A stretch of DNA of 64,000 nt. Source: a virus. Its lineage: Duplodnaviria > Caudoviricetes. The DNA is taken from positions 43,955-107,954 of IMG/VR virus record IMGVR_UViG_3300012344_000001. One strand, given 5' to 3'. A program made the position numbers and the translations under genes. The notes under the pieces were generated by a model. That model worked only from the letters and a program-made list of their open reading frames with translations, ran no database searches and was not told the DNA's origin. Shown here piece after piece: positions 18,796-51,897 of the stretch; the stretch's first letter is position 1; each line of letters starts with the position of its first letter.

Positions 18796-19038
18796 TTACA
18801 CCACCCTTGCTTTTTCCGTCATAAATTCCTTGGCGTAGTTTTCGCCATATTCGTTCTTCATAATGTCGTCGTAGACTCTGAACGCTGGCGTAAGTTTCAT
18901 GTATTTATAGTGCTTTCGTGCTTCTTTCAACAGCATGTCTGCTGGTGCTAAACTACAGCCATATTCTTCAAGCGGACAGTCCGCGCATCGCCGTCTAAGA
19001 CAAGCCGCTTCAAACAGAAGGTGCTTGTTCATATTCAC
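18796..19038 (-). CDS. Cys-rich small protein, tail ARVV
   Basis: C-x4-CADCPL; C-terminal tail motif. Confidence 0.7.
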   Translation of the reverse strand: MNMNKHLLFEAACLRRRCADCPLEEYGCSLAPADMLLKEARKHYKYMKLTPAFRVYDDIMKNEYGENYAKEFMTEKARVV

Positions 19039-19286
19039 ACCACCTTCGCCTGCTTGATGATTGCCCGAACCACTTCTTCGGGAAACAGCTTTGGATTTTC
19101 GCGCACCACCCGTTCAATCGCCGCTTCTGCCGCCTTGTGTGTCGGGTCGTGATGCGATAGGCATAGAAAATTCGACGTGCCATCTTCTGCGAATTTCAGC
19201 TTGTAAAGCGGACAGCCGTAGCAGGTTGCGTCTTTAGACATTTTACAACACGTCCACAGCGCCTTGTTAAAAATTCTATCTTTCAT
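19035..19286 (-). CDS. Cys-rich small protein, tail AKVV
   Basis: CYGCPL. Confidence 0.7.
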   Translation of the reverse strand: MKDRIFNKALWTCCKMSKDATCYGCPLYKLKFAEDGTSNFLCLSHHDPTHKAAEAAIERVVRENPKLFPEEVVRAIIKQAKVV

Positions 19287-19288
19287 GG

Positions 19289-19582
19289 CTATACCACCGT
19301 TGCATCGGTGCGATGCCATTCCATATCGGTCGTGTAATGCGGTCTATGAACGCGTAAAATGATTTCGCCCGTGTACGGATTGGGATATAAATATCCGGCG
19401 GTGAAATGCTGACAGGTGTGATAAATCACTTTGTAACCCCATCCATTGCAATTCTTCATTTCTTGCAGAATCATGCGTTCGACAGTTTTCTTTGCGACGG
19501 AAGGTTTCTTGTAGGTATCACACACCCTCTGTTCTGGTGCGCGATTGTATGCAGAAATAAAATGATTTTCAAAAGTGTTCAT
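19289..19582 (-). CDS. Hypothetical protein, tail ATVV
   Basis: SD GGAGG; tail motif. Confidence 0.65.
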   Translation of the reverse strand: MNTFENHFISAYNRAPEQRVCDTYKKPSVAKKTVERMILQEMKNCNGWGYKVIYHTCQHFTAGYLYPNPYTGEIILRVHRPHYTTDMEWHRTDATVV

Positions 19583-20407
19583 ATTATATACCTCCAGCCT
19601 TCAGCACGCGATAAATTCGACCGCGCACAGGCACTCAAAGGATTCTTTCATCTGAAGTGCGTGGCGCATAGCCGCCATATACATTTCATCTTCGGGTCTG
19701 TCATCGTGAAGTTTGATGGTCGCCGTGCGTTCGTTGCCGTTGTCCATGTTCTGATACTTCGCTTCAAAAATATACATATTGTACTCCAACAGCAGATAGA
19801 TTAAAGGCTTCCCTTCCCTGCTGTAATTATAGTATAGCACGCCCATATAAAATTGTCAAGCTGGACAGAAGTGAATCCGCCCAGCTTGCATATTAAATTA
19901 CTTCCTTATGGACGGCGCAGTAGATAATCGCCAGCATAAACACTGGGTACCACGTCCAGCGCGGCATAACCCAATCACGATAGCCGCCGTCGGTATAATA
20001 ACCGATTCCAGTCAAAGTGTCAACATCAAACACCTTGTTTCTTTTCATCAAGCGGCAGAACGTTCGCAGACTCATGACAGTATATTCGTCCGAATTATCA
20101 ATGATGCCGACAATCCACAGCGCGACACAATAGACAAGAATAACTATCAGCATGGTGACAATAAACGTAATCATATTACACTCCTTCACACATAGACGCG
20201 CTTTGCGCCTGCAAACTTGCCGTTGACCGTGGTGACGTGGTACAGTCCATCGCAGTAGCCCGAAGTCAGATTGTCATAGACGTGGCTCATGCGAATCGTG
20301 AACAGCGTGATAGCTTCACCTTCTTCGCTGATGCGGTGCTTCTGATTTATGATTGTGCCTTGGCGGTAAAGCGCCGCCATGTGTTCTGCGTACCCCATGA
20401 TGTCACC

Positions 20408-20791
20408 TTAACCTTTCATAAAATGTTTGATTGGTGGATTGAAACGATAGGCGCCATGGTCATTCTCCACGGTGAATTTTTCATCCGTCTTTTTGGCGGG
20501 GAACATATCGTTCAGGCGATACTTCACGATGGTGGTTGCGCCATTAAAGCCTTCGCCGTAAAGTCCACACCAGCCTTCGACATTATATTCAACGCTTGCG
20601 AAGTTGACAGTTTCCGCCTTTTCAGACGTGGGAACAATGCCAGCTTTCGGCAGAAGTTCAGACGCTAAACCAGTTTCAGATAAGACAAGGCGATTGATGC
20701 GTACAGGCGTTCCGCAGATGATTTCTACACGCGATTCAAACTTGTAGATGGTGGCATTGCCATTCCAGTTGTCAAACTTGATATAATACAT
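20408..20791 (-). CDS. Hypothetical protein, possible paralog of 20802..21239
   Basis: Similar N-termini (YYIKFD..ATIYKFE vs YYVQLD..CTIYEIE). Confidence 0.55.
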   Translation of the reverse strand: MYYIKFDNWNGNATIYKFESRVEIICGTPVRINRLVLSETGLASELLPKAGIVPTSEKAETVNFASVEYNVEGWCGLYGEGFNGATTIVKYRLNDMFPAKKTDEKFTVENDHGAYRFNPPIKHFMKG

Positions 20792-20801
20792 ATAGTACAC
20801 C

Positions 20802-21239
20802 TCACTTTGTAATTTTGGCGTGTTTCTTGCCGTCTGCGCTAATATAGACATCGAACTTATAGCCACATCTTTCAAAGGATTCGCGCAATTCGGCTTCATC
20901 TTCGTCGTTGACGATTTCAAGTGCGGGTGTGAATTCATACCAAACACCGTCCGCGTGATATTTCACATCGAACTTGAAGTCTACGCGCTTAACTTCAAAA
21001 GCCCACATGTAATCCCCGTCCAAGCGGTTTCCAAAGTTCATGAAGTTGTACGGAACCTTTTCAACACAGCAAGCCTTGGCTGGATAGAAGCCGAGGTTGG
21101 ACATAATATCAAGACCGCCGCTTGCTACGGTGGTGCGAAGATGTGCATTGCGCACACCCCATTCGTCATGGACGATGGCTTCTTCAATTTCGTAGATGGT
21201 GCAGGATTCCTTGTCCAGTTGAACATAATACTTTTTCAT
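20802..21239 (-). CDS. Hypothetical protein
   Basis: 145 aa behind a promoter at about 21285-21316. Confidence 0.6.
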   Translation of the reverse strand: MKKYYVQLDKESCTIYEIEEAIVHDEWGVRNAHLRTTVASGGLDIMSNLGFYPAKACCVEKVPYNFMNFGNRLDGDYMWAFEVKRVDFKFDVKYHADGVWYEFTPALEIVNDEDEAELRESFERCGYKFDVYISADGKKHAKITK

Positions 21240-21320
21240 AATGTACTCCGCGCGGCATAGATTGGGGACTTCCCCGCCGCTATAACTATACTATCAGATT
21301 GGTGCAATTTTGTCAAGCGC

Positions 21321-21557
21321 TTATAGGACTTTCGCACCACCAATCGTTTTCCATTCGTTTGCGACCATCTGCATATAATTCGCGCCGTCTTCCTTCTTAG
21401 ATTTTCGCGTATATTCTTTGCGGGCAATCCCAATAAGGTCGGCTTCGCTGAAATTGTTCATGCGGCACTTGATATTTTCGCGGTCAAACATTAGACAATC
21501 GCCGTTACACCAATTATTAGTGCAGATAATCGACTTTGCCGCGTTGTACTTTGTCAT
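21321..21557 (-). CDS. Cys-rich small protein, tail AKVL
   Basis: ICTNNWCNGDCLM. Confidence 0.7.
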   Translation of the reverse strand: MTKYNAAKSIICTNNWCNGDCLMFDRENIKCRMNNFSEADLIGIARKEYTRKSKKEDGANYMQMVANEWKTIGGAKVL

Positions 21558-21874
21558 AACACCACCGCCTTCTTCGCCCGCGTTGCGTTGATAAGCGTGC
21601 CATATCTGTGATTGCAAATGCCTTCTTCAAGGTGGATGTGGTAGAAATCCAAGCTACCTTTAACATTCCAGCCGTCAAACTTGCCAAGAAAAGTGCGAAA
21701 CACAAGCTGGAATTCTGTATCGGCATCGTATTCGTTGATTTGCGACAAAAGCACATCTTCGCATTCGGGATAAATCGCCTTGGCGACTTCACCAAACTGT
21801 GCGATATTGTCGCCGAAATAAATCAAGGTGCGCGGCTTGCGTTTCACCTGTTCTAAAATCTGTTGCGTAGTCAT
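21554..21874 (-). CDS. Hypothetical protein (LIYFG family), tail AVVL
   Basis: Paralog of 24962..25288. Confidence 0.7.
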   Translation of the reverse strand: MTTQQILEQVKRKPRTLIYFGDNIAQFGEVAKAIYPECEDVLLSQINEYDADTEFQLVFRTFLGKFDGWNVKGSLDFYHIHLEEGICNHRYGTLINATRAKKAVVL

Positions 21875-21875
21875 G

Positions 21876-22094
21876 TTACACCACCTTCGCTTTCATAGGC
21901 GCAATGTCGTTGTTGTTAATCCACCAAAACCCGCCATAACCGTGGTTCATGTGCGTGTGGTTTGGTTCCCACGCGGAAAGATTGCCCTTGCCAGTGCTGC
22001 GGATTTCAACAACGGTTCCAATCGCAAAGCGGTGCCCACTGTGATTTTCAACGATTTTTACAAGGTCGCCCTTCTTAACTTTCATAATTACCAC
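21876..22094 (-). CDS. SH3/KOW-like small protein, tail AKVV
   Basis: KKGDLVKIVENHSGHRFAIGTVVEI. Confidence 0.7.
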   Translation of the reverse strand: MVIMKVKKGDLVKIVENHSGHRFAIGTVVEIRSTGKGNLSAWEPNHTHMNHGYGGFWWINNNDIAPMKAKVV

Positions 22095-22557
22095 CCTATT
22101 CTGCCGAAGCCAAGTTCACCAGCTTCACGACTTCGCCATTGACCATTCTATGATACCATAATCCGCTGAACGGTGCGCGGATAATGCGAATTCGCGCGTT
22201 GCCAATCAAATCATCCGTGATGAATTTGCCATAGCGCAGAAGATATTGCGAATATTCATAATCAATCGTGTTCATATTGCACCCCACAACAGATAGATTT
22301 AGGGTAGCCCCTTTTCTGTTGTACCTATATTGTAACAGTTTATTCACAATTTGTCAAGCCCTGCGCGATTTGCCCGACCAGACGCGCTAAAACCGCCATA
22401 AATGCCCTTAGAATGCGCTGTGCGCGCTTTTAGACGCGCGGTGGTAAAAGTACCCACCCTATTCTAAACGCGCTTAGAACGCATTTATGCGCGATTTGTA
22501 ATTGTGAACAAATTGTAAACAAGGCGGATAAAAAAAGAAGGCGGGATAGACCCGCCT

Positions 22558-22917
22558 TCACCAGACAACAATAAGCCTAACGCTTGAAGAAGATTGGTAG
22601 TAGTCTTCCCGTTCAACTTGAAAGCCGCGCCGTTTCAATCGCCTTTCAAACAGGTCGGCGTATTTGCGTCGGACGTATATCTTTGCGCATTTCATTCCCA
22701 AACTGGCTTCCGAATGGATTTCTGCGTTCAGCGCATTATAATCCTGCCATCGCCTGATAAATTCGCGTCTTCTGTCGTTTAAGTCCCCAAGGCGTCGTGC
22801 TGTTTTTGCATTAAGAAATGTAGCGCAAAAATCGGAAGCGTTAATAGCAAGCAGCAGTAATACAACAAGCGCAAAAAGAACAGTCAGAATTTTAAGAATT
22901 GTCATGTTAGCACCCAC
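22558..22917 (-). CDS. Hypothetical membrane-anchored protein
   Basis: N-terminal hydrophobic segment. Confidence 0.5.
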   Translation of the reverse strand: MGANMTILKILTVLFALVVLLLLAINASDFCATFLNAKTARRLGDLNDRRREFIRRWQDYNALNAEIHSEASLGMKCAKIYVRRKYADLFERRLKRRGFQVEREDYYQSSSSVRLIVVW

Positions 22918-23302
22918 CCTTCAGAAACGGCTTGGCAAACTTGTAGATTGTGATTTCGGGGATTGTCAGCGCCTTGATAATGTCAACCGCTTGAACACAA
23001 ATAACAGCAATGGCGATTGTGGCAATGATGGCGCAAATGACGGTGGCGACAACAAGCGAATAGTCATCATCGTCTGCTTCCGCCAGCGGCCTAATCTTCT
23101 TGTTGCGAATGTAAAATGCAAGAAACACGATGACAACTTGCAAAATTATCCATGCGGCAGAAGTAGCGATTTCGTAGGCGACGATGCGATGGCAAAGGTC
23201 TTGCAAATAGGGCATGATGTTGCTTGCCGTCCAGTCGATTACGATACCAAACTTTTCGCAGATGGCATCAAGAACGGCGATGATTTGGTTAGAAACAGTC
23301 AT
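22907..23302 (-). CDS. Membrane protein
   Basis: Two TM segments, SD GGAGG. Confidence 0.6.
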   Translation of the reverse strand: MTVSNQIIAVLDAICEKFGIVIDWTASNIMPYLQDLCHRIVAYEIATSAAWIILQVVIVFLAFYIRNKKIRPLAEADDDDYSLVVATVICAIIATIAIAVICVQAVDIIKALTIPEITIYKFAKPFLKGGC

Positions 23303-23317
23303 TTAATTTGTCCTCCA

Positions 23318-23539
23318 TTAAATTATTTTAGCGCCGACCGGTCTTAGGTCACAGGTGTAAATTTCCTGTGAAGTTTTACGGTTGCCGCTATTTATTGTTT
23401 TGCACCGCACAGAACAAGTATCTTTCCCAACGCGGGTAATTTCGCCGATTTGTGGGATGATTGCGTAGTGGATTTTATTCGTGTTTCCCACGATTTTCAC
23501 CTTTTGCCCAACGTGGAATTTATACAATCTTGGCACCAC
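23318..23539 (-). CDS. SH3/KOW-like small protein, tail AKII
   Basis: FHVGQKVKIVGN. Confidence 0.7.
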   Translation of the reverse strand: MVPRLYKFHVGQKVKIVGNTNKIHYAIIPQIGEITRVGKDTCSVRCKTINSGNRKTSQEIYTCDLRPVGAKII

Positions 23540-23771
23540 CTTTTGGATATTTTCTCGCGATTGCCGCCCATCGGTTCAGTAGTTTCTTATCGGCAGACGT
23601 TGCTCGTGGATATCTGTATTTGTACGCAAGCCGCGCAGCAGTTCGCAGGTCTTTCGTGCTTACATAGGACGATGCGCACCAGTGAACTGGACAGCGATTA
23701 CAGAACGAAACGCCATATATCGGGCTGCACATTATATTTATTAGGGTGTTGCGAAATTCAAGTTCGTTCAT
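23520..23771 (-). CDS. Cys-rich small protein, tail AKIV
   Basis: CNRCPV. Confidence 0.7.
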   Translation of the reverse strand: MNELEFRNTLINIMCSPIYGVSFCNRCPVHWCASSYVSTKDLRTAARLAYKYRYPRATSADKKLLNRWAAIARKYPKGGAKIV

Positions 23772-24037
23772 ACTACCGTCGCCCTTCTTATCACAAATCG
23801 CCCATATTCTGATGGCAAATCCTTAAACATTTGCGCGTTCCCGTGTTTAATACAGGCTTTTAGAAGTTTTACACGCTTTTCGTCATATTGCGAACAACAG
23901 TCTGTGCAAATTGCCATGTCGAAATCTGTACTAATTGACATTAGCGGACAATCTTCACAGCCGCCTGAGTGGTATAGCCTGCAAAAACAGTCGGTGATTG
24001 CACTCATTGCATTTTTGCTTGGGATATCCATATTCAC
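23768..24037 (-). CDS. Cys-rich small protein, tail ATVV
   Basis: CEDCPL. Confidence 0.7.
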   Translation of the reverse strand: MNMDIPSKNAMSAITDCFCRLYHSGGCEDCPLMSISTDFDMAICTDCCSQYDEKRVKLLKACIKHGNAQMFKDLPSEYGRFVIRRATVV

Positions 24038-24306
24038 ACCACCCTTGCACCATTCTTATAGTAGTACCAATTACCTTTTGGCGGCTCTTGATAGTTCTGG
24101 AAACCAATCACGGACGTTCCAGTGCAATCGCCATGCTCGTAGCGTATCTGCGTAGAGCCGCCCCCATAAACTTCATATTCATAATGCAGTATTGGACGAT
24201 GGATGGAAACGAAGTCTATATACTGTCTTGCGGTATCGCTGTTTGGGAATACGAAAATACAGGATTCACCACTGTTGGCGATTTCAAACATCTTTTTGAA
24301 CGTCAT
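24034..24306 (-). CDS. Hypothetical protein, tail ARVV
   Basis: Coupled ORF. Confidence 0.65.
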   Translation of the reverse strand: MTFKKMFEIANSGESCIFVFPNSDTARQYIDFVSIHRPILHYEYEVYGGGSTQIRYEHGDCTGTSVIGFQNYQEPPKGNWYYYKNGARVV

Positions 24307-24307
24307 G

Positions 24308-24413
24308 TCATACTACCTCCGCACCTGCTGCGCGCAGGTCGTGTTCGATGATAATCTGCGGTGGTGTTGTCAACAATGCGAACGCGCTGTCCAACACGAT
24401 ATAGATAGTTCAT
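24308..24413 (-). pseudogene. Internally deleted SH3/KOW-family gene, tail AEVV
   Basis: MNYLYRVGQRVRIVDNTT joined out of frame to QIIIEHDLRAAGAEVV*. Confidence 0.6.
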
Positions 24414-24658
24414 CAGAACACCTTCTTCACCAGTCGCGCGGTCACGATTTTGTCACCATCCGCAGCGATGTACGCCTGAACTTCACCCGTGTCATTGAAC
24501 TTACGCTTGTAGCCGTGCGCTTCGCAAATGTCATCAATCACATCGCCAGCGCAGATATTTGCAGAGTTCTGTGACTGGTGCATTGTGTCAACGTGGAACT
24601 TGCCATCTTCGTACTTGTATACGAACCAGCGAAAAATTTTGGGAACCATTTTGCACAC
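24413..24658 (-). CDS. Hypothetical protein
   Basis: 81 aa behind a promoter at about 24680-24708. Confidence 0.55.
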   Translation of the reverse strand: MCKMVPKIFRWFVYKYEDGKFHVDTMHQSQNSANICAGDVIDDICEAHGYKRKFNDTGEVQAYIAADGDKIVTARLVKKVF

Positions 24659-24712
24659 CGCCTTTCCTGTTGTAATAATATTGTAACATTTTGTTCACAA
24701 TTTGTCAAGCGA

Positions 24713-24739
24713 AATAAAAAAGACGCCCGCGAAGGCGTC
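24713..24739 (-). terminator. Intrinsic terminator
   Basis: agacgcc-ttcg-cgggcgtct followed by a T-run on the minus strand. Confidence 0.7.
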
Positions 24740-24960
24740 TAAATGATTTGTGCGGTGGTGGGCGCTGGCTTCAATTCGTTGAATTTGAAGTGGCACTCGA
24801 CGGGCGCAATGTGGCTGTCCACCCTTATTTTAATAGGGAATCGCCTGTCTGGGTTAATGTCAATGATAACGCCAATCATGCCGTTGTCAACGGCGCGGTC
24901 TTCAAGGTATTCCGTATCGTCACAGTCGATGATAACCTTTTGTCCGACGTAAAAATTCAC
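24739..24960 (-). CDS. SH3/KOW-like small protein, tail AQII
   Basis: FYVGQKVII...GMIGVII. Confidence 0.7.
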   Translation of the reverse strand: MNFYVGQKVIIDCDDTEYLEDRAVDNGMIGVIIDINPDRRFPIKIRVDSHIAPVECHFKFNELKPAPTTAQII

Positions 24961-24961
24961 A

Positions 24962-25288
24962 CTACACCACCTTTGCCCTTCTGTCGTGCGACAAATCTAC
25001 CAGTAACCATTCGTCGTCTTTTTCGCGTCCTGCGGCAGTCCAGCGGGCGTAGTGCGCTTTCTTCGTATCGAAATCCATTTTGAAGAACTCGATGCTATCT
25101 TCACGGTTGAATCCGTCGTATTTGCCGTTGGCGTACAGAATACAAAGTTCGGTGCAGTTGTCTGTTCGATGTGGCACGAATCCGCCCGTGGCTTTGTTGA
25201 CGGTAACAAATGATTCCCAATCGACGCCAAAATACAGCAGAACGCGCGGGTTTTCTTTGATAACATTTTTGATTGCAGTAATATTCAT
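24962..25288 (-). CDS. Hypothetical protein (LLYFG family), tail AKVV
   Basis: Paralog of 21554..21874. Confidence 0.7.
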   Translation of the reverse strand: MNITAIKNVIKENPRVLLYFGVDWESFVTVNKATGGFVPHRTDNCTELCILYANGKYDGFNREDSIEFFKMDFDTKKAHYARWTAAGREKDDEWLLVDLSHDRRAKVV

Positions 25289-25340
25289 ATTGCACCTCGC
25301 AAAAAAGGTTTACGGCGGCATCCGAACTGGATTTATTAAA

Positions 25341-25595
25341 TTAGACGATTTTACAGCCGCAGACATACGGGCGGAAATCAGGGTCTTCTTTGATTTCAGT
25401 TTTTATGCTTTCATGATACTTCTTGTCTGTGAAATATAGGAACTTGCCAACGTTAATGGTTCCGTCGTGGTTGTCATACGAACAACACCGTCCAAGCTTT
25501 TTGCGGATAGGGCAGGTGTTACATCCGTTTCCAAATCCAGGGATTCTGCAACCAGCGCGTTTGAAATGGTATGCAGCAGTTTCTTTGTCTATCAT
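25341..25595 (-). CDS. Cys-rich small protein, tail CKIV
   Basis: CNTCPI. Confidence 0.65.
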   Translation of the reverse strand: MIDKETAAYHFKRAGCRIPGFGNGCNTCPIRKKLGRCCSYDNHDGTINVGKFLYFTDKKYHESIKTEIKEDPDFRPYVCGCKIV

Positions 25596-25600
25596 ATTTA

Positions 25601-25978
25601 TCACCCCACCGCAATACCGCCGCAATAGCGAACAGAAATGATTCTATCACCAGCAATTTCGGGCGTGCCGCGGTCGTCGATAATCATGGCGGCGATGTCC
25701 CCAATCATCCAATCTTCGGCGCCGTAGAACATCCAGATTTCGCCGTTGTAGTCGGACAAATAGACCGAATCGTTGTTTTCATCCACTTCGACAACCACGG
25801 CGGCGTGCGGATAAAGATTGTCAACTGCTGGTTGCGCGTCATTTTTTACGCAGGACGTAGACGCGATGGCGACAATGATAAGCAATGCGATGCCAAAGAA
25901 TAGGATGATAGAATTTCGTGTGCGAAAATGTTTCATGGTAGTACCCCTTTCCTTATCATGCTTATATTGTAACGCCAA
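25601..25978 (-). CDS. Exported or lipoprotein-like hypothetical protein
   Basis: Signal-like hydrophobic stretch ending STSC; true start probably MKHFR. Confidence 0.55.
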   Translation of the reverse strand: MALQYKHDKERGTTMKHFRTRNSIILFFGIALLIIVAIASTSCVKNDAQPAVDNLYPHAAVVVEVDENNDSVYLSDYNGEIWMFYGAEDWMIGDIAAMIIDDRGTPEIAGDRIISVRYCGGIAVG

Positions 25979-25995
25979 AAGGTTGACTTGTCAAG

Positions 25996-26217
25996 CTAAA
26001 CTACCGTCGCACCCGCAGGTTCTATGTCTGCTTCGCGGACGATATAATGGCTTCCGTGTCCAGTCGATGCGTAAAACGGATGCCCATAACGGTTGACTTC
26101 GCGCCACGATTGTTCACCAAGGGCTACAATTTGCCCAATCTTAAAGCCATGGCTGTTGTGGTTGCCAATTATTCTGACACGCATACCTTGACGTGCGGTT
26201 CCAGTTTTCATGGTCAC
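25996..26217 (-). CDS. SH3/KOW-like small protein, tail ATVV
   Basis: QGMRVRIIGNHNSHGFKIGQIV. Confidence 0.7.
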   Translation of the reverse strand: MTMKTGTARQGMRVRIIGNHNSHGFKIGQIVALGEQSWREVNRYGHPFYASTGHGSHYIVREADIEPAGATVV

Positions 26218-26687
26218 ACCACCTTTGCAGACGACGGTTTGATTTTCTTTATATATTGCAGGGGAACATTAACATTGGTGTTATATATGTTTGCATAGAC
26301 AATGGCTTCGCCGTGTAATATTGATTTGACGCGCCCCGTGAAAACACCTGTGCCTACAAGGTCGCCAGCTTTGATGCTTTGGACGTCGTTCCACATCTTG
26401 ACCAGTTTTGGGATATCTTCGTCGGTAAATCCGACTGGACAGACGGTACAACCGATGTGGTAAAATTCGCCAAAGCGGTGTTCAATATAGGCTTGACCGC
26501 CACAGTGACACGGGACAGCTTTTTGTTCGCTGGATTTGATAAGCTTTTTAATGCGATTATTCTTGATTGATTTCTTGATGCGGTCAATGCAAAAATCATG
26601 AATCGCACTAACAAAAAGGATGGTGGCGGAGATGGCTAACGCCACAAAAAGAATCCACATAAAAACACACGCAATCTTTTCTATCAC
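26214..26687 (-). CDS. TM + Lar-like zinc ribbon + KOW-like protein, tail AKVV
   Basis: PCHCGG...CTVC...MWN; IKAGDLV. Confidence 0.6.
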   Translation of the reverse strand: MIEKIACVFMWILFVALAISATILFVSAIHDFCIDRIKKSIKNNRIKKLIKSSEQKAVPCHCGGQAYIEHRFGEFYHIGCTVCPVGFTDEDIPKLVKMWNDVQSIKAGDLVGTGVFTGRVKSILHGEAIVYANIYNTNVNVPLQYIKKIKPSSAKVV

Positions 26688-27801: not shown

Positions 27802-27834
27802 CCTATATTATCCTACCATAAAGTTAAGGTTTTG

Positions 27835-39761: not shown

Positions 39762-39812
39762 TTTTTGTTCACCGTCCTTATGGTATTATATTACCACAAA
39801 ATAAAGTTGTTG

Positions 39813-41096: not shown

Positions 41097-41136
41097 TGCA
41101 CACCTCTAAAATCGGCTAAAAGAAGCCTGTCTCATG

Positions 41137-44283: not shown

Positions 44284-44289
44284 ATCAAA

Positions 44290-44985
44290 TCACCCCTTAT
44301 ATTGAAATAATTTTTCGACACGCATAAACGTGTTTCCACCTTGATTATCAAGCTGGCGGCGAAGCGGCTTTTCCCACACACAAACGAAATCTTCTGGCGC
44401 AGATTCTTCGCTGATAAACACGTTGGCGCGCTTTGAAATTTCGCGCATATATTCCCAAAAACCTTCTGTGTCGAATGCACCAGTAGCATAGCCCGTCACG
44501 TTTTTATACGGCGGGTCGCTATAAACAACGGCGCCGTCTGGAATTTCAACTTCGCGATAATCGCCACATAAAAAAGTTGCGGTCTTAACACCTTCAAAAT
44601 CTTTCATTAACGACACCTTTGGCGTCTTGCAGAAGTCGTCGCCGCGATGTTCGCGGGCGAGTCCACCCCACCATTTGCCACCATAAGAACAACCAAAGCC
44701 AACAAAGCCAGCAAGCCCCATATCGTCGTTTTGGCGCGCCTTTATTTTAAGATAGTCGCCAGTGGTTATAATATCAGGGAAGTTGCGTTCGTTCTGGAGG
44801 TCACGCCACATAGCTATAAGGTGTGGGTGCAAATCGTTCAAGATTTTTACATCGAAATCCAAGAGCGATTCTACGGCACAAGAGCCACAAAAAAGCGATA
44901 TGAGCGGTTGATTGTGGTCGGCGTTTGCGTTAATATATTCGGCAATGTCGCGCTTAATCCGCGATTTCCCGCCTAAATATCGCAT
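44290..44985 (-). CDS. D12-class (Dam-like) DNA adenine methyltransferase
   Basis: YLGGK, LFCGS, ILND, DPPY. Confidence 0.85.
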   Translation of the reverse strand: MRYLGGKSRIKRDIAEYINANADHNQPLISLFCGSCAVESLLDFDVKILNDLHPHLIAMWRDLQNERNFPDIITTGDYLKIKARQNDDMGLAGFVGFGCSYGGKWWGGLAREHRGDDFCKTPKVSLMKDFEGVKTATFLCGDYREVEIPDGAVVYSDPPYKNVTGYATGAFDTEGFWEYMREISKRANVFISEESAPEDFVCVWEKPLRRQLDNQGGNTFMRVEKLFQYKG

Positions 44986-44987
44986 AA

Positions 44988-45320
44988 TCACACCACCTTT
45001 GCTTTTTGTTCTGGTACATTCCACGGATAAAACGCCACTTCCCAAAGCGCGCCGTTATATTTTGCGCGATATTTGTCATGCGAATATTGGATTCGCGTGA
45101 TAACATATTCGATTCCGAACGCGGTATCACGAAACCGATAACCGTCTGGAAAGCGCGGCGAAACGAACTTAACGGACGACATCTTCATGCGAAGTTTCAC
45201 ACCGCTGTCAACAATAAAACGGGCGCGGTCGTTTTCGTCTGGCATGTCAATAATCCAAACGTGGCGACCATAGAATTTTGAATTTTTATTTGTGATGATA
45301 TATTTGTCCAGATAGTTCAT
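44988..45320 (-). CDS. SH3-like protein, tail AKVV
   Basis: ITNKNSKFYG; similar to 27835. Confidence 0.65.
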   Translation of the reverse strand: MNYLDKYIITNKNSKFYGRHVWIIDMPDENDRARFIVDSGVKLRMKMSSVKFVSPRFPDGYRFRDTAFGIEYVITRIQYSHDKYRAKYNGALWEVAFYPWNVPEQKAKVV

Positions 45321-45547
45321 ACTACTTTCGCCACCTTTCTTCTGTGTAAGCGTAGATTGTACGCATCTGCGCTACGCCAATACGGTTCAGAACCTGAGTC
45401 GGGATAGATTTTGTCACCAGCGCGCTTATAGTTCGGAACAAGCCTAACGCGATTGTCATAGCGGTCAATTTCGACGACCGTGTAAGCATAATGGACGTTT
45501 TCCGTAGAAAACAAGATGTCGCCAACGTGATAGTCCCCAATCGTCAT
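45317..45547 (-). CDS. SH3-like small protein, tail AKVV
   Basis: DYHVGDILFS. Confidence 0.7.
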   Translation of the reverse strand: MTIGDYHVGDILFSTENVHYAYTVVEIDRYDNRVRLVPNYKRAGDKIYPDSGSEPYWRSADAYNLRLHRRKVAKVV

Positions 45548-45780
45548 AATACCACCGCCTTCTTTTGGACTTTTCGACAGAAATTTTCGGGGAATACGGT
45601 ATACGCGCCGCCAATGTGTGAGAAATGGCGTTGCAGATTATGGTCATATTTTTCAACGGTTTGCACTGTGACTGTGCGCGACGCGTCGTTCTTATGCGTA
45701 ACCTTATAACGATACGTTTTATCTTCGGAATCGGCAATCAAAATATCGCCTATGTTGATTTCGTTGTAAGTCACAGTCAC
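45544..45780 (-). CDS. SH3-like small protein, tail AVVL
   Basis: EINIGDILIA. Confidence 0.7.
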   Translation of the reverse strand: MTVTYNEINIGDILIADSEDKTYRYKVTHKNDASRTVTVQTVEKYDHNLQRHFSHIGGAYTVFPENFCRKVQKKAVVL

Positions 45781-46022
45781 ACCACCTTTGCACCGAAATA
45801 TACGCCGATTTTGTTCGCTTCTGCCATCGTGCGTTCGCCATGGTCAATTCGCCACTTCATAACGCGAAGCAACTGTGCGCGTTTCTTAGGATTGCAATTC
45901 CACGCTTCCGTGATAGAATAGCACCTGCCCAATACTTGCTGCATACAACAAGTGTTGTTACAGGCCGAACCACCGCAGATAAAGCTACAAACGTTGCTAC
46001 CCTCAACATTGTCAAAACGCAT
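45777..46022 (-). CDS. Cys-rich small protein, tail AKVV
   Basis: ICGGSACNNTCC. Confidence 0.7.
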   Translation of the reverse strand: MRFDNVEGSNVCSFICGGSACNNTCCMQQVLGRCYSITEAWNCNPKKRAQLLRVMKWRIDHGERTMAEANKIGVYFGAKVV

Positions 46023-46047
46023 GATACTTTCACCACCTTATGATGGT

Positions 46048-46076
46048 ATTATATCATGCGTTTTAACTTTTGTCAA
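46048..46076 (-). promoter_or_regulatory. Sigma-A promoter overlapping the dnaE stop codon
   Basis: TTGACA-17 nt-TATAAT; one of more than 20 near-consensus minus-strand promoters in the window. Confidence 0.8.
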
Positions 46077-49000
46077 GTGAACTTGGAAGTGACGATATCG
46101 TATTCTACAAGGCAATCGCAGTACGTTCCGGTTTGTTCAAAGCCGCTTTCAGTTTTTCGCCAGTTCGGTCGCTTTTGAAACTTCTTGCAATACAAGATGT
46201 CATCTGCCTTAAACTTGTGTTTGCCATAGAATTTTTTGTCCGCTTTGCACTCTATGGATTTTCCGGTCGCGATACAATACAGCGTAACGCGCGGCGTAAA
46301 TTTGGTATCTGCCGCCAACACATAGCAGAAGTTTTTCGGAAGTTCGGGCTGTGTGAACGACACATAGCCAAGATATTCGCGGTCGGCTTGTATGCGTTCT
46401 GCCAGCGGCAAATATTCGTCGGGCAAAGACGCTTCAAACGCTTTCAGTTCAGCGATTCGCGCTTCTTTCGTCTTGGCAACATACGTTTTCTTGTAGCGGT
46501 CGAAGAATTTGTCAACGATTGCCAACAGCTTCTTGTTTTTGCCAAATTCGCTAAAGAAGCCGATGGTGGTCAGCACCTTGATTTGGCGGGCGTCAACCGT
46601 GGTATTTTCGCGAAGATAGACAAGAAGGTCGGCGAACGTGGGAAAATCCATGAAGCGGATAGAATAAAGCTGGTCGGCGCAATCGGCAGAAATATATTTG
46701 ATGGAACCAATTCCTTTGTATATAGTTCTTGTGGATTCATCAAATGAATATTCCAGCTTCGCGGAACGAAATCTTCCCGGCTTTAGATTTATGCCAAAAT
46801 ATTTCAGTTCCTTCGTTAGCCTTGATGTCTTTTCTTGGTTTCCGTCGTAAATATTAAATACGACAGTGTAGTAATGAAGCGGATAGTTTTTCTTCAAATA
46901 CGCTCCATACAGACAATCAAGCGCCGTCGCGGCACCGTGGGGACTGTTAAACCCATAGTTCATTTGTGCCTGCATATCTGACCACATTTTATCAAATCCG
47001 TCGTCTGAACCAGTGTTTTTCTTCCAGTTTTCGCGTAGTCCTTGTTCGAGTTTTTTGAAATCTTCCGGCTTGATTTTTTTCTTTGAAATCTTCTTTATTA
47101 GACCAATAGATTCTGCCGGCGTTACGCCAAGAAACTCGAACATTGACATCAGGGATTCTTGGAAGATTACTCTGTGTCCAGTTGGTTCAAGAACTTTGTC
47201 TAACGCTTCTGAACCGGTGGTATGTGGCTTTCTCGCAATAAAATCATCTCGTTGTGGCGCAAAATTTGGTCGAATTGCACCAACAAACATCGCCAGTTCT
47301 TCCATGGAACGCGGCTTATATTTTCGCAACAATGCTGTCGCCCAATCTTCGCCAACTTGGTTCAAGGTGCAGGTAATTCCATCGTCAAAAAGTTTCCATG
47401 TATCTTCGTCGATATTTTCTAAAAGACGTTTTACGGGCATAATTGGCTTGCCGATTGATTTGAAAACTTTTGAAATAATGTCCCAAACGCTAACGATAAG
47501 ATAATCATTTTTAAGATATTTCCACGAATCGGCTTCAGAAGATGTTATCATTGCGCACAAGAAATCACCAAGTTTTACAACACCAACCTCTTCTTCGATA
47601 TCGCAATTCATCAAAAGATGGGCGCATGGATGCACAGACGCGCTTACAATCGTACCGACATACTTTTGCGATTCACTAATATAAGCGCCCCATTTTTTGT
47701 CGTCGCGATATGCATCAATATCCTTAGACACTTCATTTACTTCGCCATATGGTTCACCAGCAGAACGACACACATTCCTAAACGCTTCACTTTCTCCCAT
47801 AGTACCATACGCCAACATTGGGAAACATCCGTCTTCGCCAAGAAGTTCGCGACTTGCCTTCACAAAAGGTTCTTGACCGACAACGTTAGCATCGAAATCT
47901 GGAAGCGCGTGGTTTTCCAGCAGTCGTGCGGTCGACATAAACCTTTCGCCGTACATCGGAAGCGTTGTTCTAAGACGATCAATTTGTGTCAAGCCAAGGA
48001 TTTTATTCAGAATGAACGCACCACACGAATTATGAACAACAATATTATTTATTGTGTAACTATGACAACCATCTACTTCCATGTCGTATACCGTGGTCGT
48101 CATGTTCTTGTGGATTTCGACAGATGTAACCGGCAAATACCAATATTCATCATCTTCTACTAATTTATTTATATTTCGATGATAACCGCCATTTAAGGTT
48201 CTTAACTTATAAGATTCGGCGTTTTTATACCCACGAACATCGTCGTATGCAAGCCGCACATCTAAAGATACAGGAGAAGAACCGTCTACAATATCATGAA
48301 GCGTTTTGTAGGTTCCACAAAGCGATAGCGACGTAGTATCGTAGCAGACCTTATTATATTCTTTCCCACTGCTACCATCGGCTTTCATCATTCCAATATA
48401 AATCCATTTAAGAAGTTCTTTCTTTTGATTCAACAAGTCCTTATTAAATGTTTTTTGTTTCCCTTTTTTCGACTTGAAGAATTCGGTTGAAAACCACGCG
48501 TTCAATATTCCGCTAAACATTGTCATTTGAATAAGGTTTTTGTTTTTAGCATAATTGTAATATATTGGAATTCCTATTCTTTGCGAAATCTTCTCAAACA
48601 CATACCTATTGAATCCATTTTTTGTTGTGTTATTTATGGCAAGTCCTATACCGTTGCTTCTTTGTGTCCATCCGTCTGCATACATAAGTCCGACAAAGGC
48701 ATTCCACATATAGTCCATAGAAATATACCTTGGTATACGTCTTCTTATAAATCCATGTTTCTTACAGTATTTAGAATAGTCTTCCATTGTCTTAAATGGA
48801 ATATTGTCAAACATATCAGCCAATGATTTTTTCGTTTTGCCGTTCGTTCCGATTTTTCCATTCACAACACTTAATGCAAATGCCTTGCTTGTAATACCAG
48901 CACGACCCAACTCGCTTGGGCTATATGGATATTTCGCTGGGGTTGGAACAACTTCGTAAATATAATTTTCATCGAATTCATATCCGAAAACATTATATTT

Positions 49001-50434
49001 ATTTAGGTCATATACGATTTCTTCATCGTATTCGTGTTTTAATTTTGGACAACAAAGCAAGCTTCCAACAGACAGTTCGTCTGCACAAACGTATTTTCTA
49101 CACCCATCTTTATAGACAAGTATTTTGTGGTCGGTGGTACAAATATTTTTATATTTTTTGTAACTACTTCCTTGGCACCTATATGTAAATTCAATCATGT
49201 CTTCGCATATATCATACGACATGGTTTTATTTACCCTGTGCCACATTCTATCTTCCGAAAGAACTTCGTCCCCAACAACCACAGAGTCTATTGTCTTCAT
49301 TGCGTTTGGTGTTCTTATAAGCGCATCTTTTGTAAAACACCCGCGGCCCGTGCGAGTCAAGACGCCACCATATTTGTTTATAGCCAAGTCGAACAGCTTG
49401 TCGTTGAGAAGAAAATAATCAGACGTGTGGACTTCGCTTGTTTCTTCAATAACCTGCATTTCCTTTCGACATTCGGCGGCATACTTTTTTCTTTCTTCTG
49501 GCGTCACTTCATCTTCTTCCATGACCTTGTTAAATTTTTTATTTACAATATCCTTCAGAATAACGATTTTTTCTTCTTCCGTCTTGCCTGCGTATATGGT
49601 TGGCATCTTGATTGTTCTGTCAATGTTGATGTTTTCGCAGGCGTCGAACGCAAGCGTGTTATTTATTGCAGAAACAATCTGCGGTCTTGTCAACACGCCC
49701 TGTTTTTCAAATCGCGAATACATAACATCAATAGTGGGATAATCAAGAATAAACGAATCTTCTTCGCCGTAATTTATGCCTTTGCCTTTTAGAAATTCAA
49801 GCCGTTCCTTGGCTTGTTCTGGATAAATATAATGACTGTCATTTGCTGCAATTATATCCAACCCATGTTCTTTTGCGAAGGAAATCGCCTTCTTGTTTAT
49901 TTCAATCTGATGTTCTTCGTTATGGTTTTGGACTTCAAGGAAAATATTTTTGCCAAACTTTTCCACCAATGGAAGAAGAATTTGATTGGTGGCGTCTTCG
50001 TCGCGAAGCAACCCCGCCATACATGCCGAAGTAATAAACAGTTCGTCATCATCAAAATTATCCGTTAAATCAGATAAAAACAGGCGCGGCTTATAATAAT
50101 ACCCGTCCCTGTTTGCGTGGCTACTTGCTTTATTAAGTTTCTTTCGTGCCACATTTGTCTTGGGAATTAAGATGATATGATAATTTCTATTGTCTTTTTC
50201 AAGCGGGTTTGGTACTATATAGCCTTCCATACCGAATTTACAGTCAAGCCCATACTTGTCACAGACTTCACGCGCTTCGAAGATATCACCACCGCTTCCA
50301 TGCTCGGTGCTAAATATATTTTTTTCACCAAGTTCAATGGCGCGCTTGGCATAATCTTCGATTTTAACATTAACATCTGGTGTAAAAATATTTGAAACGT
50401 GTGTATGTTTGTGATAATTGTTATACCTATCCAA
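46073..50434 (-). CDS. dnaE: DNA polymerase III alpha subunit with intein
   Basis: PHP motifs HKHT, TEHG, NDSHY; GRG|S; PDFD; KNDYL; YGFNSPH. Confidence 0.92.
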   Translation of the reverse strand: MDRYNNYHKHTHVSNIFTPDVNVKIEDYAKRAIELGEKNIFSTEHGSGGDIFEAREVCDKYGLDCKFGMEGYIVPNPLEKDNRNYHIILIPKTNVARKKLNKASSHANRDGYYYKPRLFLSDLTDNFDDDELFITSACMAGLLRDEDATNQILLPLVEKFGKNIFLEVQNHNEEHQIEINKKAISFAKEHGLDIIAANDSHYIYPEQAKERLEFLKGKGINYGEEDSFILDYPTIDVMYSRFEKQGVLTRPQIVSAINNTLAFDACENINIDRTIKMPTIYAGKTEEEKIVILKDIVNKKFNKVMEEDEVTPEERKKYAAECRKEMQVIEETSEVHTSDYFLLNDKLFDLAINKYGGVLTRTGRGCFTKDALIRTPNAMKTIDSVVVGDEVLSEDRMWHRVNKTMSYDICEDMIEFTYRCQGSSYKKYKNICTTDHKILVYKDGCRKYVCADELSVGSLLCCPKLKHEYDEEIVYDLNKYNVFGYEFDENYIYEVVPTPAKYPYSPSELGRAGITSKAFALSVVNGKIGTNGKTKKSLADMFDNIPFKTMEDYSKYCKKHGFIRRRIPRYISMDYMWNAFVGLMYADGWTQRSNGIGLAINNTTKNGFNRYVFEKISQRIGIPIYYNYAKNKNLIQMTMFSGILNAWFSTEFFKSKKGKQKTFNKDLLNQKKELLKWIYIGMMKADGSSGKEYNKVCYDTTSLSLCGTYKTLHDIVDGSSPVSLDVRLAYDDVRGYKNAESYKLRTLNGGYHRNINKLVEDDEYWYLPVTSVEIHKNMTTTVYDMEVDGCHSYTINNIVVHNSCGAFILNKILGLTQIDRLRTTLPMYGERFMSTARLLENHALPDFDANVVGQEPFVKASRELLGEDGCFPMLAYGTMGESEAFRNVCRSAGEPYGEVNEVSKDIDAYRDDKKWGAYISESQKYVGTIVSASVHPCAHLLMNCDIEEEVGVVKLGDFLCAMITSSEADSWKYLKNDYLIVSVWDIISKVFKSIGKPIMPVKRLLENIDEDTWKLFDDGITCTLNQVGEDWATALLRKYKPRSMEELAMFVGAIRPNFAPQRDDFIARKPHTTGSEALDKVLEPTGHRVIFQESLMSMFEFLGVTPAESIGLIKKISKKKIKPEDFKKLEQGLRENWKKNTGSDDGFDKMWSDMQAQMNYGFNSPHGAATALDCLYGAYLKKNYPLHYYTVVFNIYDGNQEKTSRLTKELKYFGINLKPGRFRSAKLEYSFDESTRTIYKGIGSIKYISADCADQLYSIRFMDFPTFADLLVYLRENTTVDARQIKVLTTIGFFSEFGKNKKLLAIVDKFFDRYKKTYVAKTKEARIAELKAFEASLPDEYLPLAERIQADREYLGYVSFTQPELPKNFCYVLAADTKFTPRVTLYCIATGKSIECKADKKFYGKHKFKADDILYCKKFQKRPNWRKTESGFEQTGTYCDCLVEYDIVTSKFT
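48029..49339 (-). mobile_element. Intein with LAGLIDADG homing endonuclease in DnaE (437 aa)
   Basis: GRG|CFTKDA...TTDH...VGLMYADG...IGMMKADG...VVHN|SCG. Confidence 0.9.
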
Positions 50435-50439
50435 TCATA

Positions 50440-50646
50440 TCACACCACCTTCGCCTGTTTTGGAATAAGTTCAAATTGACCGACATCCATACCGTATATC
50501 CATTCAAGTCTTGTGTCATCCTTGCTAATAGACGCAACATTTATTCGTCCACTTTCTTGTTCCGTTATATCGCACACAAAGAATTTGACGTGGTAACTTG
50601 GCTTGGATTTGTCTTTTCCCCACACAATTTGTCCAAGCTTAAACAT
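50440..50646 (-). CDS. SH3-like small protein, tail AKVV
   Basis: FKLGQIVWG..YHVK. Confidence 0.7.
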   Translation of the reverse strand: MFKLGQIVWGKDKSKPSYHVKFFVCDITEQESGRINVASISKDDTRLEWIYGMDVGQFELIPKQAKVV

Positions 50647-50648
50647 GG

Positions 50649-50825
50649 CTACACCACCTTCGCGGTTTTCTTCTTCACAGGATAAGCCCATATTTTCGTC
50701 GCGTTAGCCCACCAGTCTTGTTCGCTGTAAATTTGATACGCCGACGGAATCCAGTTGGCGGTCGTATTGTTATATTCCGTTCGTGCATAGTCGGTTGCTA
50801 TAATATAATAATCAATTTTCGCCAT
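50649..50825 (-). CDS. Small protein, tail AKVV
   Basis: MAKIDYY...KKTAKVV. Confidence 0.6.
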   Translation of the reverse strand: MAKIDYYIIATDYARTEYNNTTANWIPSAYQIYSEQDWWANATKIWAYPVKKKTAKVV

Positions 50826-51273
50826 CTTTGACCGCCGTTTCTTCGTCCATAAAATCTTCCGCCACACCATCGCGCGGTTCGACTTCACCCTTAATTCGCG
50901 CAAGAAGATATTCCAAATCTTCGATAGATGCTTCATAGAAACTGATGTCCCAAATCCAATAATCAGAAAATTGTGGAGCCTTAAATTTTAGCGCATACTT
51001 ATCGCACCACAGCCTATCCCAAAGTGCCTGTCTGCCTTCGCCAGGTTTCGCCAGCATATCCATGATTTCATGCACCAGTTTTCCGCGTACCTTGCCCTTA
51101 TTGTCGTCGTCCCGCGACACATAATCACGCGCATTCTGCGACGTGCGTACAAACATCGGCTTGCCGCGATAATACAGCATATCACCAACAAGGTCAAGCG
51201 ACTTTCCATAAGGAATGTTTACATCGCCAGAAATAGACTTAATTCGCATCCTACGATTTGTAATATATCTCAT
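50812..51273 (-). CDS. Hypothetical protein
   Basis: MRYITNRR..VNIPYG. Confidence 0.6.
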   Translation of the reverse strand: MRYITNRRMRIKSISGDVNIPYGKSLDLVGDMLYYRGKPMFVRTSQNARDYVSRDDDNKGKVRGKLVHEIMDMLAKPGEGRQALWDRLWCDKYALKFKAPQFSDYWIWDISFYEASIEDLEYLLARIKGEVEPRDGVAEDFMDEETAVKDGEN

Positions 51274-51446
51274 TATTTCCCCAGCCTTTCCCCGCAGAAC
51301 GGGCAATAATTTATATAGATTCTGTCATAGACGAAGTCGTCTTCGTAGATGTCCCATTCGCCAGTTTCGTGGTCAAGATACCATTCACCGACCGCATCTT
51401 GAAAAATCGTGCAATCGTTTGAACCATAGTCGCAGTATTTACACAT
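51273..51446 (-). CDS. Small zinc-ribbon protein
   Basis: MCKYC...INYCPFCGERL; below ORF-track cutoff. Confidence 0.6.
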   Translation of the reverse strand: MCKYCDYGSNDCTIFQDAVGEWYLDHETGEWDIYEDDFVYDRIYINYCPFCGERLGK

Positions 51447-51685
51447 TATATAACCGCCGCCTTTCGATAACGCGCAATAATTTCACGCGCCGTTTCTTCG
51501 TCTTTGTCTGTAAGCATAAGTTCATCGCTATTTGGTAAATCAATTATTCTTTTTGCGACTTCCACGACTTCTTGGCTTGTTGGTTCGACATCGCAATCGC
51601 CATATTTATTCAGCGGACATTCGTCGCACGAATCATAGCGCGAACAAATAAATTCGTTCAGCAGAAAATATTCTTTGTCATTCAA
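51446..51685 (-). CDS. Cys-rich small protein, tail AAVI
   Basis: ICSRYDSCDECPL. Confidence 0.7.
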   Translation of the reverse strand: MNDKEYFLLNEFICSRYDSCDECPLNKYGDCDVEPTSQEVVEVAKRIIDLPNSDELMLTDKDEETAREIIARYRKAAVI

Positions 51686-51897
51686 ACAACCACCGCCTTC
51701 ATATAGCGCGACAAAATTTCCATTGTCTGCAATCCCGCAACGCCAGATTTGCGGTATACAATCAGTGCATACTTCACAAGTTCCTTATCTGGCGTTTCCG
51801 TGTTACAGGGGACCCAAGCATCAATAGGGCAAGTGCCGCACGCACCAAAATTTCCGCAAATATACCTGTGTAAGATTTCGCGTTCATTTGCCGTCAT
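51682..51897 (-). CDS. Cys-rich small protein, tail AVVV
   Basis: ICGNFGACGTCPI. Confidence 0.7.
   Translation of the reverse strand: MTANEREILHRYICGNFGACGTCPIDAWVPCNTETPDKELVKYALIVYRKSGVAGLQTMEILSRYMKAVVV

Follow-up and report, generated by a model that had tools for sequence, protein, structure and literature searches.

The acidic C-terminal tails of the T7 proteins gp2.5 and gp4 dock on the T7 DNA polymerase, and the replication proteins of T4 have clamp-binding tails. In the proteobacterial protein SspB, the XB tail (LRVVK) docks on the N-domain of ClpX. The C-terminal signals recognized by ClpX include an ssrA class (...LAA) and a MuA class (RRKKAI) (PMC8138137, summarizing Flynn et al. 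2003). Here, we analyzed a 64,000-nucleotide (nt) stretch of the genome of a gut phage (Caudoviricetes), comprising bases 43,955–107,954 of the 107,954-bp IMG/VR record IMGVR_UViG_3300012344_000001 (hereafter the window; coordinates prefixed with w are window positions), in which a large set of small proteins ends in a common C-terminal tail with the consensus (P)-x-[K/R]-[K/G/S]-A-x-[V/I]-[V/I/L]-COOH. Full-text searches of the literature gave no account of a phage-wide C-terminal tag like this.

The phage record carries direct terminal repeats, and 169 genes were called genome-wide with a simple model of codon usage and Shine-Dalgarno (SD) sequences. The tail genes lie on the minus strand, where densely packed small genes are mixed with larger early and replication genes. 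Twelve near-perfect promoters (TTGACA-N17-TATAAT), every one on the minus strand, occur within w18500–38499, suggesting that the arrays of tail genes are most likely early operons transcribed by the host polymerase. The pattern [AGC]-x-[VI]-[VIL]-stop ends 33 of the 169 genes, about a fifth of the phage genes, whereas the frequency of the pattern inside the proteins predicts 0.7 (4-mers; binomial p ~1e−44), and it occurs 54 times on the minus strand versus 7 times, the chance level, on the plus strand. An initial annotation of this DNA had listed 33 minus-strand tails and proposed an enrichment analysis of C-terminal 4-mers; all 33 coordinates and sequences were correct when re-read, and the analysis gave the strong excess just described. 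Among the early-region proteins of up to 160 amino acids (aa), 33 of 58 are tailed, as against none of the 15 larger ones, in agreement with the earlier remark that the core enzymes lack the tail. Two broken genes carry it as well, as had been noted: a 33-codon remnant ending in GAEVV (w24308–24409), which is a full-length gene in relatives, and a 61-codon open frame ending in KAKVV, probably also a remnant (w37002–37187).

The tail had been described as a single motif, which is indeed enriched but merges two registers. In the first, (K)-A-K-V-V is written GCN AAG GTG GTG and a stop codon, with an ATG 1–2 nt further on, and the SD of the next gene is AAGGTGGTG. In the second, K-A-V-V-L is written AAG GCG GTG GTN TTA TGA, with the next start formed by an ATGA overlap, and the SD is AAGGCGGTG. 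Across both forms, Ala occupies position −4 in 90% of cases and V, I, or L occupies positions −2 and −1 in all of them, while position −3 is variable (K, V, R, T, also Q and E). Further upstream, positions −5 and −6 are basic or Gly/Ser, with K or R in ~42% at −6 and 45% at −5.

When the tail-bearing proteins were compared within the genome by BLAST and iterated hidden Markov models (HMMs), the tail was found to cross at least three unrelated folds, as expected from the initial description of the proteins as unrelated; however, most of the set proved to belong to a few paralog families. Family A has 10–11 SH3/KOW-like members that begin with sequences like MFKVGQIVW or xxxGDxV. Family B has at least five clear Cys-rich CxxCP members, accompanied by several more Cys-rich CxxCP proteins, family C has two members, and the other tail proteins are singles. 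Pfam and PHROGs gave zero matches for any tail-bearing protein. An AlphaFold2 (AF2) model of a 68-aa family A member with the tail AVVL (w39265–39471), built from a 41-row alignment with a predicted local distance difference test score (pLDDT) of 86.6, showed an SH3/KOW-like barrel of five strands, the last of which runs to residue 60, whereas residues 61–68, including the tail, formed a coil with a pLDDT of ~66. A fold search with family A returned weak SH3/KOW/Tudor-like matches (E ~0.01, TM 0.65–0.7). These results indicate that proteins of three or more unrelated kinds share the tail, and in family A, the only family modelled, it is predicted to lie outside the fold as a flexible extension.

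The same tail was present in relatives of the phage. These comprised the whole genome G001 (IMGVR_UViG_3300001528_000208) and eight 10–20-kb gut-metagenome loci with 75–82% nucleotide identity, together with three deeper lineages (L133, L135, and L136) gathered through the S51 peptidase gene described below. The initial annotation had raised the possibility that related phages lack the tail, but it occurs in every one of the relatives just listed, on 35–55% of the small genes. When the genes were sorted into 127 ortholog groups, 30 groups were tailed in all members, 7 departed from it only by conservative substitutions (Val at −4 or Leu at −2), and 90 had no tail, indicating that tail status is all-or-none per ortholog group. 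Furthermore, in a database search with tail-trimmed family A queries, 101 of the 120 homologs ended in the tail.

A junction was regarded as coupled when the next start codon lay −15 to +6 nt from the stop codon. Coupling holds for 25 of the 33 tails (odds ratio of tail with coupling, 5.6), and the other eight tail genes are uncoupled. These encode a 78-aa Cys-rich protein ending in AKVL in non-SD codons, with a promoter next (w21321–21557); a 69-aa family A protein ending in AKII in non-SD codons, where the next gene has a separate SD (w23318–23527); a 73-aa family A protein ending in AQII in non-SD codons, with a terminator next (w24739–24960); an 84-aa Cys-rich protein ending in CKIV (w25341–25595); a 71-aa family A protein ending in ATVV, with a promoter next (w25996–26211); a 109-aa protein that adjoins the S51 gene and ends in AVVV, with its stop codon forming the −35 box TTGACA (w27835–28164); a 69-aa family A protein ending in AKII in non-SD codons (w36789–36998); and a 74-aa protein ending in AQVV (w38011–38235). 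In other words, what follows an uncoupled tail is a terminator, a promoter, or the separate SD of the next gene, and the tail codons include GCT AAA ATA ATT, GCA CAA ATC ATT, TGT AAA ATC GTC, and GCG ACG GTA GTT, in which no SD can be read. Setting aside the SD-overlapping genes, after which the initial annotation had thought the enrichment might vanish, left 8 tails among 85 uncoupled genes versus 0.35 expected (p 3e−9).

The initial annotation had further argued that the motif persists in non-SD codons where no coupling is needed, so that the peptide is what is selected. The eight genes above bear this out, as do the relatives, in which 146 unique tail junctions were compared: 82 were coupled with SD-type codons, 32 uncoupled with non-SD codons, 18 coupled with non-SD codons, and 14 uncoupled with SD-like codons. 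The codons also varied silently. At the Ala of position −4, 21 minimal codon changes comprised 17 silent and 4 replacement changes, and orthologs of w25996 retain the same peptide with all four third positions different, the group as a whole writing A-T-[V/I/L]-V ahead of the same promoter in five codon combinations. Within ortholog groups, the tail toggles between AKVV (AAG GTG GTG) when coupled and AKII (AAA ATT ATC) when a terminator is next. For example, the w24739 group has AKII, AQII, or CAKII in AT-rich codons ahead of a terminator in seven genomes and AKVV (AAG GTG GTG) in the one genome where the next gene follows directly, and in the w24962 group, AKVV in SD codons alternates with ARIV (GCG CGR ATT GTA). 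RNA function alone failed to explain the sequence, since the peptide is kept in non-SD codons at uncoupled genes and varies silently. These comparisons argue that purifying selection very probably acts on the tail peptide itself.

The coupled junctions point in the same direction. Looked for 4–10 nt before the next start codon, a GGNGG core is present in the tail codons of 100 of the 124 unique coupled tail junctions, mostly at 6–7 nt, and GGTGG or GGCGG is found in 77% of the 124. Meanwhile, GGAGG occurs in only 4 of the 124 (3%), as against 32 of the 169 (19%) unique coupled junctions without a tail across the clade (p 2e−5), 43 of which kind occur in this genome. Of 100 tail junctions, 94 have the SD core in phase 2, compared with 44 of 76 others, and the non-tail junctions use all three frames. 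In this fixed frame, the variable base of GGNGG falls on a second codon position, so that T gives Val (position −2 in the AKVV form), C gives Ala (position −4 in the KAVVL form), and A gives Glu; Glu is seen at the free position −3, in GAEVV, written GCG GAG GTG GTG. Because the optimal GGAGG in this frame would put Glu in the tail, the peptide seems to dictate a suboptimal SD rather than the reverse.

A sister lineage has a common ending of its own. RNA polymerase identity to the phage is 76% in two additional IMG/VR relatives, one of which, G005 (85 kb, IMGVR_UViG_3300045988_126990), forms a clade with the metagenome loci L128 and L129, which are 95% identical to it. No AxVV tails occur in G005, L128, or L129. 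Instead, 12 of the 130 genes of G005 end in Met-Glu, often as C-x-M-E, against 0.29 expected (p 3e−16), including 11 of the 33 small genes of the syntenic region (x-M-E tail region, L123:3294–9792). The ending is written ATG GAG and a stop codon followed by a close start (SD GGAG), or ATG GAA TGA with an ATGA overlap, and its contexts also include one 23-nt overlap with the next gene and one uncoupled gene ahead of a promoter. The proteins that carry it are SH3-like (MKLYVGQKVV..., MIKPGDKILL...), Cys-rich CxxC proteins with weak matches to the family B model, and the w27835 ortholog beside the S51 gene, which ends in VHME. Judged by these family A-like, family B-like, and w27835-related sequences, the same protein families bear a different common ending in the sister lineage. 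In the distant relative TR-TP1, a Thomasclavelia phage, none of the 123 genes matches the tail; its small genes are packed but share no ending, and their last residues are mostly E, K, or D.

On these grounds, we propose that the tail is a short C-terminal peptide tag on most small early proteins of this phage lineage, and that it is a common recognition tag with a shared reader of some kind strikes us as nearly an even proposition. Because the genes are packed end to end, the tail codons also have to carry the ribosome-binding site of the next gene, and peptide and SD have become mutually adapted. The tag may serve as a common handle that delivers the early proteins as a set to one putative reader, and this reader would differ between lineages, since the sister clade puts x-Met-Glu on the same families. 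Among candidate machines, Clp-type proteolysis is the most concrete, in which a host unfoldase with the host ClpP or the phage ClpP would bring about timed removal or delivery; equally possible is a reader encoded by the phage, such as the S51 peptidase or the 356- and 515-aa proteins at the array head. Taken as a whole, a lineage-specific address-tag system, in which a 4–5-residue tag (AxVV-type here, CxME in the sister clade) marks over 30 small early effectors with unrelated folds for one co-evolving reader, is a tentative and rather doubtful proposition.

Several points weigh against this proposal. Paralogy means that the 33 tails are not 33 independent events, and an overlap with an SD is seen in three of every four. 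At the third position of the Ala codon, purines make up 93% in the tails compared with 57% elsewhere, as an extended SD would favor, and this bias indicates that RNA-level selection is also acting on the tail codons. The ME sequences are ~95% identical to one another, too close for a silent-change test of that ending. The acidic x-M-E end is unlike known Clp degrons, and the transfer-messenger RNA (tmRNA) tag of the candidate host (AEDNLAYAA, from two Lachnospiraceae-type genomes) is unlike either tail. Finally, the co-occurrence of candidate readers with the tails rests on three lineages only, and no reader was singled out among the co-occurring genes.

If the proposal is true, a single reader, whether a protease built around the phage ClpP or a phage receptor, would let the phage time, destroy, or deliver its early proteome as a set, and the constraint on the tag would be strong enough to dictate the ribosome-binding sites embedded in it. 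No part of phage genomes is less well understood than the small early proteins; through a common tag, all of them would become accessible to experiment at once, and the tag would point to a shared host or phage machine controlling them. The junction counts show that a constraint on the protein can prevail over the best ribosome-binding sequence where operons are tightly coupled, which matters for gene annotation and for interpreting C-terminal composition biases. Furthermore, the switch of tag between sister lineages is a natural experiment in which co-variation could lead to the reader.

Among the genes that the two tail clades share and TR-TP1 lacks are an S51 peptidase, two paralogs of 356 and 515 aa, and a ClpP-family protease. 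The S51 (peptidase E-like) gene (w28165–28812, minus strand) heads a tail-gene array, with synteny across the two tail clades. The peptidase retains its Ser and His motifs and had no homolog among 50,697 deposited phage records; its identity is 47% to L133, which has the same tail, and 39% to the sister clade. Complex prediction of S51 with a family A tail protein, run without controls, gave a score of 0.00, which speaks neither for nor against binding. The two paralogs, which have no recognized fold, lie upstream of S51 (w28809–31538, minus strand). With their C-terminal CxCCG motif, they form a conserved trio together with S51 at the head of the small-gene array (w28165–31538). A model of the 356-aa protein (pLDDT 75.7) had no fold match by Foldseek or a wide structural search (best Z 4.6), and a protein atlas search with the 515-aa paralog gave no match. 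Some relatives have a second S51 copy (L011:15461–16048, L135:14378–14965). The ClpP-family protease, already mentioned in the initial annotation, is encoded on the plus strand (w9689–10312) with its Ser/His/Asp triad intact, beside a PhoH-like ATPase. It stands alone in a plus-strand module (w9689–11031) far from the capsid genes, and the module also holds dNMP-kinase-like, HNH nuclease, and PAPS-reductase-like genes. On this distribution, ClpP and S51 are candidate tag readers, both unproven.

One alternative is that the tail is a C-terminal degron for a host AAA+ protease, either ClpXP reading a MuA RRKKAI-like signal or FtsH or Lon reading non-polar ends, possibly feeding the phage ClpP, so that the proteins are cleared on a schedule or serve as decoys. 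The modelled C-terminal end is free and flexible, the basic residues common at −5/−6 before a small and hydrophobic end resemble the MuA signal (PMC8138137), and the phage has a ClpP-family gene with an intact triad. However, the C-x-M-E end of the sister clade is acidic and unlike any listed degron, which also does not fit the broader suggestion of the initial annotation that a generic basic-then-hydrophobic tail is being read. In addition, TR-TP1, likewise a phage of gut Firmicutes, has no such tails, and the tail lacks the terminal Ala-Ala of ssrA tags, with which the candidate-host tag ends. We consider this explanation unlikely.

Alternatively, the tail could be a pure by-product, that is, the translation of an SD/stop/start junction (AAGGTGGTG-TGA-N2-ATG or AAGGCGGTGGTGTTATGA) that spread by cassette duplication and recombination at junctions and whose peptide has no role. 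The association of tails with coupling, the 82 of 146 unique junctions that are coupled with SD-type codons, and the purine bias of the Ala codon are what this explanation would predict, and gene order does differ among the relatives, with breakpoints at junctions. Yet the uncoupled genes hold the peptide in non-SD codons across 20–25% nucleotide divergence, tail status never decays within ortholog groups, the many coupled junctions without the tail use other SDs and frames, and tail junctions consistently have GGTGG or GGCGG as their SD, which is suboptimal. The by-product explanation is therefore improbable. It is a little less probable still that the tail has an intrinsic role in each protein, as a stabilizing cap, a self-association strand, or a preferred termination context, with no common reader. 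The residues are simple beta-branched hydrophobics, and families A and B supply many of the members, so that the sharing is partly inherited; against this, proteins of unrelated folds share the tail and 90 other ortholog groups in these genomes lack it, it is predicted to lie outside the fold, and the same families have a chemically different tail in the sister clade.

Least probable of all is an exopeptidase mark, by which S51 (peptidase E/cyanophycinase family) or an M20/M28-like peptidase would trim the terminal dipeptide (VV, VL, or II, and ME in the sister clade) and switch the proteins on or off: S51 keeps its Ser and His motifs, shows synteny with the arrays in the two tail clades, and is missing from TR-TP1 and from the deposited phage records, but its identity does not clearly track tail type, and the known S51 enzymes, to our knowledge, have Asp-X dipeptides or cyanophycin as substrates rather than the ends of proteins. 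A CaaX-like reading was dropped because it fits the CKIV family only, as was a start-codon-like reading of the last two codons because GTA, GTT, and GTC are common.

The remaining tail genes, all on the minus strand, are arranged in arrays along the window. At the lowest coordinates among them, three coupled genes encode a 78-aa Cys-rich protein of family B ending in ARVV (w18796–19032), an 83-aa Cys-rich protein ending in AKVV with the SD AAGGTGGTG (w19035–19286), and a 97-aa protein ending in ATVV (w19289–19582). Next to w21321 lie a 106-aa family C protein ending in AVVL, with an ATGA overlap and the SD AAGGCGGTG (w21554–21874), and a coupled 69-aa family A protein ending in AKVV (w21876–22085). 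Beside w23318, an 83-aa Cys-rich protein ends in AKIV, the SD of the next gene being upstream of the tail in another frame (K-G-G; w23520–23771); it adjoins a Cys-rich protein of about 87 aa ending in ATVV with an ATGA overlap (w23768–24037) and a coupled 90-aa protein ending in ARVV (w24034–24306). The w24962 gene encodes a 108-aa family C protein ending in AKVV (w24962–25288); it is coupled here, and its orthologs with ARIV use non-SD codons. On the low-coordinate side of the S51 gene lie a coupled 157-aa protein ending in AKVV (w26214–26687), a 78-aa family B protein ending in AVVL with a GTGA overlap (w26684–26920), a 91-aa family B protein ending in GTIL in non-SD codons with an ATGA overlap (w26917–27192), and a 68-aa family A protein ending in AVVL with an ATGA overlap (w27586–27792).

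Further along the window, a 104-aa protein ends in AKIL with a GTGA overlap (w38483–38797), and the modelled family A protein is flanked by a coupled 77-aa family A protein ending in ARVV (w39035–39268) and a coupled 95-aa protein ending in AKVV (w39474–39761). Another array comprises a coupled 110-aa protein ending in AKVV (w44988–45320), two 76-aa family A proteins with ATGA overlaps, one ending in AKVV written GCG AAA GTA GTA (w45317–45547) and the other in AVVL (w45544–45774), and a coupled 81-aa Cys-rich protein ending in AKVV (w45777–46022). Just upstream of the gene for a DnaE-type polymerase lies a 68-aa family A protein ending in AKVV (w50440–50646), accompanied by a coupled 58-aa protein with the same ending (w50649–50825). 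The last two are family B proteins, of 79 aa ending in AAVI with a TAATG overlap (w51446–51685) and of 71 aa ending in AVVV and coupled (w51682–51897).

Among the arrays are genes for DnaB, primase, a PD-(D/E)XK nuclease, methyltransferases, a cell-wall hydrolase, the S51 peptidase, and the M20/M28-like peptidase. The DnaE-type polymerase gene (w46073–50434, minus strand) and the gene for the anaerobic ribonucleotide reductase NrdD (w59593–62667, minus strand) each contain an intein, and that of NrdD has a LAGLIDADG endonuclease domain inside it. The stop codon of several genes doubles as part of the −35 box of the next promoter (...T TGA CAA... within TTGACA, N17, and a TATAAT-like box), for example at w27800–27840, w46040–46075, and w25960–25996, among others. 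The sole tRNA gene of the phage, tRNA-Glu with the anticodon TTC (genome 76263–76337, w32309–32383, minus strand), lies within the early region, and no tmRNA gene was found in the phage genome. There are three TnpB (IS605 OrfB) genes (w35105–36163, w41203–42303, and genome 34572–35708). In relatives, TnpB copies stand directly after tail genes of the w24962 and w23318 ortholog groups, starting a few bases past ...GTG GTG TGA/TAA, so the tail-gene junction may be an insertion target of TnpB.

A YonO-like single-subunit RNA polymerase (w3375–5906, minus strand; Pfam RdRP match) shares 39% identity with those of the Thomasclavelia phages TR-TP1 and TP2, the nearest cultured relatives by this protein, and 26% with SPbeta YonO; this polymerase ties the phage distantly, at the level of protein sequence, to both. 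A megablast search with 10 kb of the genome against deposited phages gave no match. The best homologs of TnpB come from Lachnospiraceae-type genomes or metagenome-assembled genomes at 73–75%, which is a hint that the host is of this type; it is probably a Firmicute.

Compared with the described systems, the tail resembles the MuA-class ClpX signal in being a short, free C-terminus that could be moved between proteins, in its basic and then small or hydrophobic composition, and in its phage context. The predicted flexible end and the K/R frequencies at −6 and −5 make this a loose resemblance, which the sister clade does not fit, and the ClpX signals are known on single proteins, whereas here the tail is on a fifth of the genome. 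The ssrA-like C-motif 1 (L/V/Y-A-A-COOH) does not apply, as no tail ends in AA. Like the SspB XB tail, which is used for docking rather than degradation, the tail combines C-terminal basic and Val-Val residues. However, it has Ala (90%) in place of the key Leu, the terminal Lys is missing, and the host is probably a Firmicute; the likeness to LRVVK drawn in the initial annotation is poor at the sequence level. Its suggestion of a PDZ-type reader fares no better, since the last residue fits but the position read by PDZ domains (−3) is the most variable of the tail, while −4 and −2 are fixed.

The tails of T7 and T4 are alike in that several phage proteins share one short C-terminal handle for one partner; they differ in being acidic or aromatic, with known readers, on few replication proteins, whereas here the tail is hydrophobic and is carried by more than 30 small proteins. 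A bacterial sliding-clamp motif (QL[SD]LF-like) was rejected, the tail profile having no Gln/Leu/Phe pattern. The peroxisomal targeting signal PTS1 (SKL) and encapsulin cargo peptides also address unrelated proteins to one machine by a C-terminal tag of 3–10 residues, but these have other sequences and belong to other cell biology, and the tail genes here have early sigma-70-type promoters and no linkage to capsid genes. A capsid or encapsulin cargo tag was likewise rejected, as the arrays lie among replication and early genes with strong sigma-70-type promoters, far from the structural module. Finally, about three quarters of the tails share with ordinary SD coupling that the SD of the following cistron is embedded in the final codons of the gene; ordinary coupling, however, uses any frame and the canonical GGAGG, whereas the tail junctions have a fixed frame and a non-canonical core, and the peptide persists where genes are uncoupled.

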